39,735 bases of DNA from sequence record OR352934.1; one strand, 5' to 3'. A program made the translations under genes and the position numbers. The DNA comes from Escherichia phage AV103. The notes beneath the pieces were generated by a model. It did not search any database. It was not told the DNA's origin and saw only the letters and a list, made by a program, of their open reading frames with translations. Of this stretch, positions 1 to 39,656 are shown one piece after another (the first letter of the stretch is position 1; each line of letters opens with the position of its first letter).

Positions 1-1761
1 TCACCACTCAATGAAAGACGTACCGTAACCCTCATCGTCCTCAGAGTATACATCAACTCCTCCTACAGACATCTCAATGATGTGCGCGGCAGACACTGTA
101 GGACGCATCATGTGCTCCTCAAGGAAGTCAGCAAGCACTTCACCTTCGACCTTAATGGAATCCAACTGCATGGACTCACGGAGATACTCAATGCCTAACG
201 CAAGGGCATCCAATCGGTCATCGTGTGCCAGAGCGCCTTTATCACGGGTGATACGGGTCATCTGGTAGAACAGTGAATACTTAATGTCATGCTTACCGTC
301 TACGTCACGAGCGGACTGATAGTCGGCCCTAATGACCTCATCACGAATGACAAGGCGATGAGTCTGCATGACTGGCTCAAGGGTATCACAAATACGCACC
401 TCCTTCATACCGCGAGCACGAATCTCTTCCATTGCACAGTTGTGGTGTTTAAGAAGGATAGGGCTGAATACCTTACCGAACATACCATCACCGAAGTTAC
501 TCTCATAGACAACCGTCTGGACTCCCCATTGCTTCGCTTTCTTAGCGAGCAACTCAAGGGTCTTATCGGAGTAGCCATCACGGAAACCTCCAGCTTCCAT
601 AAGGTAGATATAACCGTTCAGGGTGTACAGTACAACATAACCTGTTTCGTCCTTACCGCGACCACTAGGGTCAATGACCAGAATCTTCTGTTGATACTGT
701 CCTGAGTTGTTGGAACAATCATGGTACGTATGAAGGTCATCACCTTTAAGACCAACGTTAGGAAGGTCCTCAATGATGTTCTGACGGTTCGGAAGCCACT
801 GGTAATGCATTGGGGCCTTCTCTAAGTCTAAGGCCGCTACGATAGCGTCACGGAGCCTCAGAGGGTACTTCTCGGCATCACTCAGGTTCGGGTTAAGCAT
901 GAACTGTAGTGTGAAGCCAGCCTTACCGTATTCCAACTCACGCTCACGAAGGTCATCACGGTCAAAGCGCACAGGGTCTGTAGGAGTCCCAGCTAGTGCC
1001 TCAGGGTTCTCATCGTACTCAGCACGCAGCATAGGAGCAAGTCGCTGTGCGTAATAGAGGTTCTCTTCACGAGTCCTTGGGTACAGAGCAGGCCAGATGA
1101 TAGTGGTGTACCCACGGTTATCTTCCAGTTCCTTATAGAGAGTCATCTCAGTTTGAGGTGTACCAAGGTAGATAACACGAGAAGTGGGCAATGGCTTAAG
1201 TAACGCAGCGAACTCCTGAACGAGAGTCCACAGCTTCTCACGGGCACCCATAGTCGCACTGTTAGACGGAATCTCAACGTCATCCGCAATGATAATGTCA
1301 GCACGGCTACCAGTTAACTGACCAGTGATACCTACTGATTTAACACTAGGAGAGTGGTCAGGTTTAGCTGGACCGACATCAAAGCTGATTACAGAATCAC
1401 GCTGTCCGGGTCTTGGCTTTAACTCAGCTAGGAACGGTAGAAGGTCAATGATGTTCTTAATGAAGATGGAGTTAGCGTCTGCACGTTCCTTAGAGGCTGA
1501 TACGATAAGTATCTTCAACTGAGGGTCTCTCCATAAGGACCACACAACGAACGCACATGTGATGAACGACTTACCGATACCACGGAAAGCCTGTAGGATA
1601 AACTTCTTGTTTTCTCCATTCGCCAGCACCTTAGCCATGTCAATCTGACACTTAGTGGGCACCGGAAGGTTTAACGCCTTCCATAAGACGAACAGGAACG
1701 CCACGAAGTCTCCTTTCAGTTGCGCCACTACGAGCGCATTACGATTGGCTTGAGTAGACAC
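1..1761 (-). CDS. 19: Terminase large subunit (DNA maturation protein B), 586 aa
   Basis: Full-length [22 protein letters not shown]...; length identical to T7 gp19; follows genes 18/18.5 as in T7. Confidence 0.95.
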
Positions 1762-22463: not shown

Positions 22464-23063
22464 CTTTCTGTATTCTCCTATTACTAGGAGTGTCGGACTA
22501 TATCATCAGCCTTTGAGTTGACTGTCTGGCGCTTCGGGTAACGAGGGAATCTCACCCTCGGCCCTACTCCTTTCGGATAGTCTCTACGCCTTCCACTCTC
22601 TAATCCACTTACAAGCGGCAGAGAACGTTACACCAAACTTCTCACCTAAGTGTGTCCCTGTACATCCAGTCTCAAACCAGTATTCCTTCGCGGACTCTTT
22701 ACGGTCAGCGTAGCGTTCCATGTTTGTCTTGACTGTATGCTCAGAACCTTCTAGTAACTGGAGGTGCTCTACGTTACAGCACGCCCTGTTCCTACACTTG
22801 TGGTCTACTTCATACCCTTCTGGTATATCCCCGTAGTGTTCCTTCCAGACTGTCCTGTGATACATTTCTAGTACACCGTTCGTCTTCTTTCGGAAATAAC
22901 CATCAGCATTAAGTTTGTGTGACGTAGGGATGATACAACCACTCTCTGTGGTCGCAAGGATTAACTTCTTGCCTCTCATATATCCTCCCTATGGCTTGGC
23001 TCGGTATTGCCCAGAAGGGTTTCACCGAGTTCACCAGATTTAATGTGCACAATGAGATAGTTT
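22464..23063 (-). mobile_element. Intervening sequence in the DNA polymerase gene, probable group I intron carrying an HNH endonuclease ORF (600 bp)
   Basis: Polymerase frame stops 7 codons after ...FAYMAWVH and resumes 600 nt downstream; exon 1 ends in U, intron ends in G; internal ORF has its own SD; about 200 nt of non-coding flank. Confidence 0.8.
22584..22979 (-). CDS. Intron-encoded HNH homing endonuclease, 131 aa
   Basis: HNH motif EVDHKCRNRACCNVEHLQL; SD GGGAGGATAT-ATG; lies wholly inside the interruption of gene 5. Confidence 0.85.
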   Translation of the reverse strand: MRGKKLILATTESGCIIPTSHKLNADGYFRKKTNGVLEMYHRTVWKEHYGDIPEGYEVDHKCRNRACCNVEHLQLLEGSEHTVKTNMERYADRKESAKEYWFETGCTGTHLGEKFGVTFSAACKWIREWKA

Positions 23064-25022
23064 ATGCACCCATGCCATGTACGCAAAGTCCCCATCCCAG
23101 CCATGCTTCAAGCCTTTCTCTACGAGCATCTCTTCGGTCTTGATAATCCACAGTTTGCAGATGAGAGCACCCGCAGATTGCAGTAGTGTATTCAAGGCAG
23201 CGTGAGGACTACGAACGTGTACCTTACGACCATCCAGACCTTTAATCCAGCGGCGTTTCCACTTGACTTGTTGCTCACCAGCTACCCATTGAGAGGACTC
23301 GACAAGTGTCTGTTGGATAGACTCACGGAGTGCTGCAATCGCTGGTGTGTTCTCAAGGAATTTCTTCTTGAGTTCCTTACCGCGTTCTTTACCAGCACCT
23401 ACAATCTGTCCAATCTTCTCATCACCAGCGCCATAAAGGAACCCATAGATGAACGTCTTGGCGTTATCACGGGTAGGCAGTTCGGCAGCTAGTTGGTTCT
23501 TAGTGTGGATGTCACCATGAAGAATCTCTCTAGCGTACTCACCGTTATCAAAGCGAGCCATGAAGTGGGCCAAACAGCGCAACTCAAGGCCGGATGCGTC
23601 GATACCTGCCTGAACCCAAGGCTTACCAGTTATCCCATCCAAATGGTGCTCAGCGCCAAAAGCAGCGCGACACTGCTCTCCATAAGGAGAACGTACACCC
23701 GGAATTTGTGCAAGGTTGGGGAACGCATGGGTCGCACGACCCGTAACTGCTCCATTAGGGTTAACAGAACCATGAATCTTACCATCCTCAGCAACGTAAC
23801 GAAGCCATGCCTTGTCTCCCTCAGCGGACTGTCCGATTCGCTTCTGAATCATCAAGTACTCTTTAATGAGGTCGATAGCGGCTTGCTTCTCAGGGTCATC
23901 TACACGCACTCCTTCGAGTACCTCATCGTCCACCACAGGAGCACCATTATCGGTGTACTTGGTCGGGACCCATCCAGCCTCTTGGAGTTTCTTCTGAATG
24001 TGGTCACGAGACGAAGGGTTAAACACAACGTGCTCAACTGGAGTATAAGGAGCACCAGCAACATACTCGCGGGTGTCCAGTTCGCAAGGCTCACGGCCTT
24101 CTCGCTGTGCCTTGTTCTTAGGCTTCTTAAAGATACCACCTACTTTAGGTATCTTAATGCGAGGGTATTTAGGCAGTGGCTTACCTGTCCGTGGATGGCA
24201 GAACATTTCGGTGCCACCTTTAGGCTGATACCACGAGCCGAACGTTTCGGTCAATTTACGGAGCAACTCAGAGCGTCTAGCAGCTAACTCTACGTACAAC
24301 TCTTCGATTGCTTTCGTGTCAAACGGGAACCCATTGCGCTCTTGCTTAGCGAGTAGCCATGCAGCACGATGCTCAATGTCAACGGCCTCAAGGGATTCTG
24401 ACCAGAACGTAGTGTATCCTACGTCCGTAAAGTCAATCTCAGGAGGGAAGTAATGTTTGTCAGAGAGTAGCTTCTCAAGGAGAGTTTTAGTGACCACAAC
24501 GTCCTGAACGTTATAGGCCATCATCTCTTCGTTGAAGTTCCACCACTCCATCCCGTCAACGTATTCTTCACCCTGCTCTTCAAGCATACGCTTAAAGTCG
24601 TCCTTGTATTCACCTTTCATCTCGCCTAAGCGATAGCCCCACGCCTCCAGAGCGTGAGACCCAAAGCGTTTCCCAGGCAACTTACCGGAACGCAGAAGAC
24701 CCATATCGGTGTCCTTGAGGTTAGAGTGAATCAAGCGTGACAGCACAAGTGTGTCAATACAGTTCTCACGAGGAATGTGGAACTCTCGGTTCAACTGCAA
24801 CTTAGCCAGCTTGGTTAACGCAGGGATGTCAAATTTAGTGAAGTTATGTCCTACGATGAGTCCTCCCTTTGCTACCTCAGCTTCTAATGCGTCAAGGTAT
24901 TTATTAAAGTCCACAGGGCGATACTTGTTGTATTCTCCAGTACTGTAGTCATAGATAACCGCGCAATGGAATTTAGTAGTGGTCTCAAGTAGACCGTTTG
25001 ATTCGATGTCTGAGACAATCAT
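23064..25022 (-). CDS. 5: DNA polymerase exon 1 (N-terminal 653 aa)
   Basis: [27 protein letters not shown]... 3'-5' exo and pol motifs; exon 1 + exon 2 = 704 aa, the T7 gp5 length. Confidence 0.9.
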
Positions 25023-25459
25023 TAGAGTTCTCCTTTAAGATACCTTATGGCATTCTCCAACCTATCTGTAGAATCGAAGAATTTACCTAAACCAATATTG
25101 CAGTGCCAGCATAATAGCCCACGAACTTTCAGAGTTAAATGGTCGTGGTCAATACAGGCTACCTTATGTCTCTCGGATGAGTGTGCCATTATAGCGTCTC
25201 CACATATCTTACACCTCCCTCCTTGCGAGTTCCATAATTCCTCATACTGCTCTACTGTCAGGCCATACTTCTTGATTTGAGATTTACGAGAACTCCACCT
25301 ATGGGCCTCTCGCTTCTCAGCATCATGCTTATGGTATCTCGCATTGTTATCTTTACGGACGCACTCTTTACACCAAGTTCTAAGACCGTCCTTCATGCGG
25401 GAAGCCTTACCGAACTCGGAGAGCGGCTTTCCGTTCCCACATTTAGAACAAATCTTCAT
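25022..25459 (-). CDS. HNH / endonuclease VII-family protein with N-terminal CxxC zinc finger, 145 aa (putative free-standing homing endonuclease)
   Basis: MKICSKCGNGKP...WCKEC... then CKICG...CIDHDHLTLKVRGLLCWHCNIGLG, resembling T4 endonuclease VII; SD GGAGGTGG; stop overlaps polymerase ATG. Confidence 0.75.
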   Translation of the reverse strand: MKICSKCGNGKPLSEFGKASRMKDGLRTWCKECVRKDNNARYHKHDAEKREAHRWSSRKSQIKKYGLTVEQYEELWNSQGGRCKICGDAIMAHSSERHKVACIDHDHLTLKVRGLLCWHCNIGLGKFFDSTDRLENAIRYLKGEL

Positions 25460-25462
25460 GCC

Positions 25463-25485
25463 ACCTCCTATAGTGAGTCGAATAG
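25463..25485 (-). promoter_or_regulatory. T7 RNAP promoter (phi4.7-like)
   Basis: Reverse complement CTATTCGACTCACTATAGGAGG directly upstream of the 145-aa HNH ORF. Confidence 0.7.
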
Positions 25486-25488
25486 TAT

Positions 25489-25525
25489 TCATGAAGGCCA
25501 CCACTTGGGCGACCTTGAGGATACC
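25489..25525 (-). promoter_or_regulatory. RNase III hairpin (R4.7-like)
   Basis: AAGGCCACCACTTGGGCGACCTTGAG inverted repeat between gene 4.5 and the phi4.7-like promoter. Confidence 0.45.
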
Positions 25526-25529
25526 ACTC

Positions 25530-25799
25530 TTAGCTTTCAATCTTGTCGAGGATAGCCATAGCTTCATTGATGCGACCAGCCTCATGAATTGCTGTCACGG
25601 CAGCTTTGGTAAGCGCATTGACCAGACGCAGTGCTTGCTCATCTGTCAACGTCATACGCTGAGTGTGATTCTTAGAGGACTTAGAGTCCTTCCATCGGTA
25701 AACCATAGTCGCCTTACCGTTGCGAACGTTGATGTGGACTCGACGGTTCCACTGGTCAGCGGTATCGGATAGACGGATAGTTTCAGCTACGTTTGACAT
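25530..25799 (-). CDS. 4.5: Gene 4.5 protein, 89 aa
   Basis: Internal ATG with SD GGAGAAACCATT gives MSNVAETIRLSDTADQWNRRVHINV..., 89 aa. Confidence 0.8.
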   Translation of the reverse strand: MSNVAETIRLSDTADQWNRRVHINVRNGKATMVYRWKDSKSSKNHTQRMTLTDEQALRLVNALTKAAVTAIHEAGRINEAMAILDKIES

Positions 25800-38644: not shown

Positions 38645-38694
38645 TACTCTTTTTTTAAATTCTTTAATTTCTCTTTTAAGGTATCTTTAAGTAG

Positions 38695-38717
38695 TCTCCT
38701 TATAGTGAGTCGTATTA
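38695..38717 (-). promoter_or_regulatory. T7 RNAP promoter (phiOL, left-end replication promoter)
   Basis: Reverse complement TAATACGACTCACTATAAGGAGAC between the repeat array and A1. Confidence 0.8.
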
Positions 38718-38930
38718 AAGACGATGGATGAAGATTATCTCTTTATAGGTAACAACAAGGCGTCTATAGGATAGGCTTTAGGATGGTCTTTAGGCTGGTC
38801 TTTAGAAGATACTTTAAGATGGGGATTGACTCATGGTGTCTTTAGGTGTAGTCTTTAGGTTGTAGACGGTAGGAATGACTTTAGGAGGTGACTTTAGGAG
38901 GATACTTTAGGAGGCTGTAACAGATAGGGA
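38718..38930. repeat. Left-end array of degenerate CCTAAAG-type heptamer repeats
   Basis: Plus strand shows about 10 copies of CTTTAGG / CTTTAAG / CTTTAGA at irregular 10-25 bp spacing. Confidence 0.75.
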
Positions 38931-39090
38931 CACAGAGAGACACTCAAGGTAACACTCAAAGGTAAACCATCGGGTCATCCCAACCTTAAGTAACCCTCAA
39001 GGTCAACCTTCGGTTGACTTTAGGTGATTGGCTGGGCTTTAGGGACCCCCCCCCCCCTATGGGGGAACTTTGGGTCCGTACACTGTGAGA
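38931..39090. repeat. Direct terminal repeat (single collapsed copy); physical genome end at about 39090
   Basis: Reverse complement begins TCTCACAGTGTACGGACCCAAAGTTCCCCCATAGGGG...CCTAAAGCCCAGCCAATCACCTAAAGTCAACC, matching the T7 left terminus; 160-bp extent assumed by analogy. Confidence 0.6.
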
Positions 39091-39270
39091 TAGTCACTCA
39101 GATTTTTATGGTATATTTTAAAGGACCCTCTAGGAACTCCCTAGGACCTCTCTAAGACCCTCTTTAGGTGACACTGATAGGATGGCCTATCTTTAGGTAT
39201 AGACCTTAGGATAGACCATTAGAGGCTCTTTATGGGTATACCTTAGGACTTGACTCTATAGGGATGAAGT
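39091..39270. repeat. Right-end array of CCTAAAG / CCTAGG-type short repeats
   Basis: CTTTAGG, CCTTAGG and CCTAGG motifs recur between gene 19.5 and the terminal repeat junction. Confidence 0.6.
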
Positions 39271-39633: not shown

Positions 39634-39656
39634 TCTCCCTATAGTGAGTCGTATTG
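39634..39656 (-). promoter_or_regulatory. T7 RNAP promoter (phiOR, right-end promoter)
   Basis: Reverse complement CAATACGACTCACTATAGGGAGAGGA between gene 19 and gene 19.5. Confidence 0.85.

Follow-up and report, generated by a model that had tools for sequence, protein, structure and literature searches.

The question raised by this locus is whether an uninterrupted run of 12 G in the sense strand of Escherichia phage AV103 belongs to the phage genome or to its sequencing, and what such a run would mean in the place where it stands. AV103 (GenBank OR352934) is a wastewater isolate with an ESBL E. coli as its host (PMC10844046). The stretch of DNA analyzed here, called the window throughout, comprises 39,735 nt and has 91-95% nucleotide identity to N30, 13a, T7 and others; on this identity, the gene order and the T7-type promoters, AV103 is assigned to Teseptimavirus with the minus strand as the sense strand. 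The window starts exactly at the stop codon of gene 19, the large terminase gene, which lies reversed at 1-1761 (minus strand). The left-end motif is present in the window only once, and therefore the deposited record is a circularly permuted, reverse-complemented contig in which the terminal repeats are collapsed to one internal copy. Short-read assemblers are known to collapse the terminal repeats of T7-like phages (PMC10438801), and terminal repeats are never mentioned in the AV103 paper (PMC10844046). In the virion, the genome is expected to measure about 39,900 bp, with its ends at plus-strand positions 39090 and 38926.

Features of the AV103 terminal repeat and its surroundings, in window coordinates
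Feature	Position	Strand	Remarks
G12 homopolymer (C12 on the plus strand)	39046..39057	-	Read directly; expanded 3' arm of the C-run/ATA/G-run motif
C5 arm (39061-39065) and ATA loop (39058-39060)	39058..39065	-	Same as in T7
T7-type direct terminal repeat, single assembled copy, 165 bp by homology	38926..39090	-	From TCTCACAGTGTACGG to GTGTCCCT
Conserved genome left-end sequence TCTCACAGTGTACGG (site of left-end formation)	39076..39090	-	Only match in the window
ATCTGTT just after the repeat	38919..38925	-	Right boundary GTGTCCCT then ATCTGTT; conserved in the alignment
CCTAAAG-type short-repeat array (T7 'SRL')	38760..38916	-	Direct-repeat families D1-D6; right of the repeat in the sense direction
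CCTAAAG-type short repeats (T7 'SRR')	39149..39250	-	Families D2, D5 and D7; right-end side of the junction
T7-type promoter, phiOL position	38695..38717	-	TAATACGACTCACTATAAGGAGA on the minus strand; family D10
T7-type promoter, phiOR position, upstream of gene 19.5	39634..39656	-	Family D10

The boundaries of the repeat were computed from the conserved end motifs, and the repeat was aligned to T7, phiA1122, N30 and others. The right-end unique sequence ...TCTGAGTGACTA directly precedes the left-end sequence, as it does in T7 and more than 20 relatives, and this contact between the two ends is therefore the arrangement of a concatemer junction. The right boundary of the repeat is followed by ATCTGTT, which we take to be CJ, the class II signal at which T7 RNA polymerase pauses or terminates; in the record of Yersinia phage Y the corresponding site bears the annotation 'CJ ... 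involved in DNA packaging'. CCTAAAG arrays on either side and promoters at phiOL and phiOR are in their places as well, and the locus is, judged from its sequence, a T7-type terminal repeat and concatemer junction of Teseptimavirus. The G-run starts 34 nt from the left end (given as TCTCACAG for this measurement), and the motif opens with its C-run at about 26-27 nt, which bears out the placement of the tract by the earlier note inside the terminal repeat, in the concatemer-junction and packaging region.

Both strands of the tract read as that note gave them, with GGGA-C12-TATGGGGGAAC on the plus strand (39041-39069 being AGGGA-C12-TAT-GGGGG-AACT) and GTTCCCCCATAGGGGGGGGGGGGTCCC on the minus strand; within the repeat the sense strand is ...AAAGTT-C5-ATA-G12-TCCCTAAAGCCCAGCC.... 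The C12 run is the sole homopolymer longer than 7 nt in the window, a C8 pattern matches nowhere but inside it, and the next C or G run has 5 nt. Given the base composition, C or G runs of at least 12 nt have an expected count of about 0.003 in 39.7 kb. Thus the run is not a chance feature. The longest other homopolymer, and the only other run above 6 nt, consists of seven T at 38650-38656 (plus strand), in an A+T-rich stretch just past the phiOL promoter.

The relation of the tract to the T7 motif was described as a replacement of the palindrome by the homopolymer, and in this respect the description has to be amended: the C5-ATA part is intact, and the G arm alone is lengthened. T7 sequences do have C5-ATA-G5 at this place, as the note stated, and the G arm of AV103 is longer by 7 nt than that of T7 and by 8 nt than the commoner G4 state. 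An alignment of the repeat in 14 sequences (AV103 and 13 relatives) shows a clean homopolymer insertion of 7-8 nt with conserved flanks and invariant CCCC and GGGG columns.

Length variation at this motif is directly observed among the relatives. Motif sequences were gathered from IMG/VR, metagenomes, GenBank phages and the window itself, giving 34 distinct T7-group left repeats. The C-run has 5 nt in 13 of these, 6 nt in 17, 7 nt in one, 8 nt in two and 11 nt in one, and the G-run has 3 nt in two, 4 nt in 27, 5 nt in three, 7 nt in one and 12 nt in one. The mode is C6/G4, the arms around ATA are unequal in 33 of the 34 (C5/G12 in AV103), and the symmetric C5/G5 state is found once, in T7 itself. 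Consequently, the symmetric palindrome, which had served as the reference state, does not represent the group, and the often-quoted C5-ATA-G5 of T7 is atypical of its own genus.

The nearest counterpart of the AV103 tract is found in JeanTinguely (MZ501081), named as the closest relative of AV103 in the AV103 paper (PMC10844046). This independent Swiss isolate from another laboratory shares with AV103 the C5-ATA, an expanded G-run, the T-C-C flank and the position in the repeat; it differs by an intermediate expansion, G7 instead of G12, and by several substitutions deeper in the repeat. Homopolymer expansion at the same motif is also seen in IMG/VR contig 3300045988_000100 (C11), Salmonella phage C2 (C8), JacobBurckhardt (C8) and EFA-2 (C7), where, unlike in AV103, the expanded arm is the C arm and G4 is kept. 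The last of these names comes from MT350293.1, a typical coliphage-type T7-like genome labelled 'Enterococcus phage EFA-2'; in addition, a portal protein of the identical family is annotated as Staphylococcus hyicus, and both labels probably reflect host mislabelling or contamination in public records.

Altered runs occur in laboratory T7 as well. Deposited T7 mutant clones carry C6/G4, C5/G4 and C6/GGGTG, and therefore changes at this site are viable. In T7_170S (C6/GGGTG), the only clone in which the right-end copy was read, the change is identical in both copies of the repeat. In the genomes MZ375264, MZ375266 and MZ375273, deposited as 'Mutant Escherichia phage T7 clone', there are further deletions, both within the repeat and in gene 19.5; a literature search did not find the source publication of the MZ3752xx clones. 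Other G and C runs of the repeats vary too, with G3-G7 at CCTTGAGn. CCTTGAG7TCCC occurs about 90 nt into the repeat of a human-gut metagenome contig (38,894 nt), the relatives of which have G3-G4, and the second C-run of Przondovirus-like repeats ranges from C3 to C8.

The length of 12 itself is confined to AV103 in the collections searched. A 75-nt query across the tract, with about 164 full-length matches, was covered over more than 69 nt by no GenBank record. The pattern C5ATAG7 or longer was absent from T7-like IMG/VR contigs, all 93 pattern hits being chance 15-mers elsewhere, and scans of metagenomes and genome collections with the downstream 20-mer yielded a few more T7-like junctions, all of them without G-run expansion. 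No near-identical sister strain of AV103 was found by exact look-ups of gp19.5, gp19, gp17 and gp1. Contigs with an identical gp4 are mosaics, 94-98% identical, in which the repeat falls outside the 10-kb flank, and the terL homologue search returned the 90% cluster representative only.

That G12 is unmatched among about 200 relatives is one of the observations that would be expected if the true G-run were short (4-7 nt) and the consensus over-extended. Polymerase stutter in the Nextera XT PCR, phasing errors in the G-run and assembler behaviour at the collapsed repeat are the candidate causes of such an artefact, and long G/C homopolymers are error-prone. AV103 was sequenced from Nextera XT libraries on a MiSeq (2x250) and assembled de novo in CLC Genomics Workbench, and the deposit consists of assemblies only, with no reads (PMC10844046). 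At 27-45 nt from the physical left end, the tract falls in a part of the genome that transposase libraries cover poorly, and assembler-introduced errors in or near the terminal repeats of T7-like phages have been reported (PMC10438801). Since the outermost tens of bases of a linear genome are under-represented in such libraries, we infer that most reads behind the tract sequence come from the right-end copy.

The size of the supposed error, however, speaks against an artefact: an over-call of 7-8 nt is far beyond the usual Illumina consensus homopolymer error of +/-1-2 nt, and a 12-nt run, being much shorter than reads and assembler words, enters a de Bruijn or CLC contig only if it is in the reads. 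Independent isolates from other laboratories have expansions at this site (G7, C7, C8 and C11). Moreover, the major genes are free of frameshifts, although the window as a whole has several runs of 5-7 nt. The major ORFs have the lengths known from T7 (586, 553, 1318, 747, 536, 307, 300, 566 and 883 aa) and the one exception, gene 5, is explained by an intron; therefore the assembly shows no tendency to homopolymer indel errors. The poly-G (dark-cycle) artefact of two-colour instruments was considered and rejected, because AV103 was sequenced on a four-colour MiSeq; in addition, the run is internal, with conserved repeat sequence on both sides.

The gene 5 exception deserves a separate description. 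The DNA polymerase gene is interrupted by an insert of about 600 bp (22474-23073, minus strand) between the positions equivalent to residues 653 and 654 of T7 gp5, and a homopolymer frameshift as the cause of its apparent truncation at 660 aa was rejected in favour of this intron insertion. The insert matches the full-length Rfam group I intron model with 36.1 bits (E=2e-07), without reaching the gathering score of 50, and it carries a 131-aa HNH_3 endonuclease ORF at 22584-22979 (Pfam E=7e-17); in related metagenomic contigs gene 5 is uninterrupted, with 704 aa. Just upstream of gene 5, a 187-aa ORF (25022-25585, minus strand) with a Recombination endonuclease VII domain (Pfam E=2e-20) occupies the position of T7 gene 4.7, its stop overlapping the gene 5 start (ATGA), and probably encodes a free-standing homing endonuclease.

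Taken together, the real slippage-prone tract is the better supported of the two readings that had been offered for the run, and we put the probability that G12 is a genuine expansion at about 0.8. The double-coverage artefact suggested as the other reading finds no support in the combination of MiSeq, Nextera XT and CLC with frameshift-free major genes, and an artefact of any of the kinds discussed above appears unlikely. The exact count of 12 could nevertheless be wrong by one or two bases, given that Illumina accuracy falls in and after long G runs and that the Nextera XT protocol includes PCR, and the phage stock may contain a mixture of lengths.

Given a genuine expansion, the tract could have a function of its own. 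The long G·C run, or a hairpin or G-rich structure formed by it, might modulate left-end cleavage, repeat duplication, packaging or the transcription that crosses the junction, and could then serve as a tunable 'contingency' element. The tract does lie where T7 processes concatemers and packages its DNA, and the terminal repeat is part of a plasmid packaging signal (bioRxiv 10.1101/2024.04.20.590424; PMC13236587). Furthermore, the C-run at +26 has kept its position across three Studiervirinae genera, which suggests selection on something there: repeats of T3, phiYeO3-12 and Przondovirus-like phages have, like AV103, a variable C-run (C5-C8) about 26 nt from the TCTCA(C/T)AGT left end, with C8 in T3 (C8-ATAG-CCCC), C6 in phiYeO3-12 and C5 to C8 in 40 Przondovirus-like sequences. 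This hints that a C-rich patch at this position is under some constraint.

The run length, however, varies freely among close relatives, and the complementary G arm and the inverted repeat are missing in T3-like phages (T3 has ATAGCCCC) and in Przondovirus-like phages (GGTACCC). The free length variation and the lack of the G arm in these sister genera argue against a need for the inverted repeat or for an exact spacing at this point. DNA hairpins of the motif are weak, from -3.8 to -7.5 kcal/mol on both strands of AV103, T7, phiA1122 and the C11 contig, and no more stable than those of dinucleotide shuffles (z from -0.55 to +2.0). The hairpin hypothesis was rejected accordingly: a stem of 4-5 bp can form, yet shuffled sequence folds equally well. 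A canonical three-tetrad G-quadruplex was also rejected, since it needs at least 15 nt (G3-N-G3-N-G3-N-G3) and the run has 12, with the next GGG about 50 nt off.

A scan for sigma-70-like promoters and terminator-like elements gave no site overlapping the tract, nor is the tract covered by any of the ORFs listed, all of them of at least 150 aa. In the window nothing reached the Rfam gathering threshold, a spurious lncRNA hit near the repeat having E=0.32. A phase-variable contingency locus was rejected by position, as there is no ORF of 150 aa or more, promoter or terminator at the tract and the T7 promoters lie over 300 nt from it. In the open-access literature, no paper discussing the motif or the tract was found. 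On balance, a functional or adaptive tract seems very improbable.

To a similarly small degree we credit the proposal that the C-run/G-run site is a conserved mutational hot spot of the Studiervirinae, tied to duplication of the terminal repeat or to terminase action. One conceivable variant is that the site marks the start or stall of strand-displacement synthesis or of a nick, the tract length tuning packaging and end formation. If the hot-spot proposal were true, the G12 of AV103 would be an extreme, selectable state. Other G and C runs of the repeats vary too, with G3-G7 at CCTTGAGn. CCTTGAG7TCCC occurs about 90 nt into the repeat of a human-gut metagenome contig (38,894 nt), the relatives of which have G3-G4, and the second C-run of Przondovirus-like repeats ranges from C3 to C8.

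In the G12 tract we thus most likely see one arm of a known motif, in an element of known type, lengthened by ordinary slippage. The comparative data favour the slippage-prone tract that the earlier note had envisaged, by the range of the C-run (5-11) and the G-run (3-12) in the 34 repeats and by the viable T7 mutants; slippage itself we infer. Both runs would be non-coding homopolymers that gain and lose units through slipped-strand mispairing, and in the AV103 lineage the G-run would have gone from the 4-5 nt that are usual to about 12, slippage presumably becoming likelier as the tract lengthened. The terminal repeat undergoes extra DNA synthesis and single-strand annealing in concatemer formation and repeat duplication, and these processes, together with packaging, may add opportunities to slip. 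The repeat appears to tolerate changes of 6-8 bp at this spot. Judging by the tolerance seen in relatives, the expansion is probably near-neutral and the tract has little or no function of its own.

For biology at large, it has little weight that a non-coding homopolymer in a well-known type of phage repeat is polymorphic in length. Nonetheless, 6-8 extra bp are evidently tolerated 26-45 nt from the genome end, and this constrains models that make end recognition depend on an exact spacing or on a defined hairpin in this portion of the repeat. Those who curate T7-like genomes should expect true length variation here and refrain from 'correcting' it to the T7 state, while the exact counts of long runs are provisional until checked on virion DNA.

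Compared with T7, AV103 has the same or nearly the same left-end sequence, C5-ATA, downstream CCTAAAGCCCAGCCAATCACC and GTGTCCCT|ATCTGTT boundary, and also resembles it in the CCTAAAG arrays on both sides and in the promoters at phiOL and phiOR. The T7 motif occupies nucleotides 25-37; in AV103 the G arm has 12 nt instead of 5 and is followed by TCCC where T7 has TACC, the repeat measures about 165 bp, compared with 160 in T7, and the deposited sequence has one copy only. A second comparison is offered by slipped-strand SSRs and the contingency loci of bacteria and phages. The AV103 tract, in contrast to these loci, lies outside a gene or promoter spacer, and on/off switching of expression is not apparent; it has in common with them a mononucleotide unit number that differs between close relatives while the flanks are conserved.
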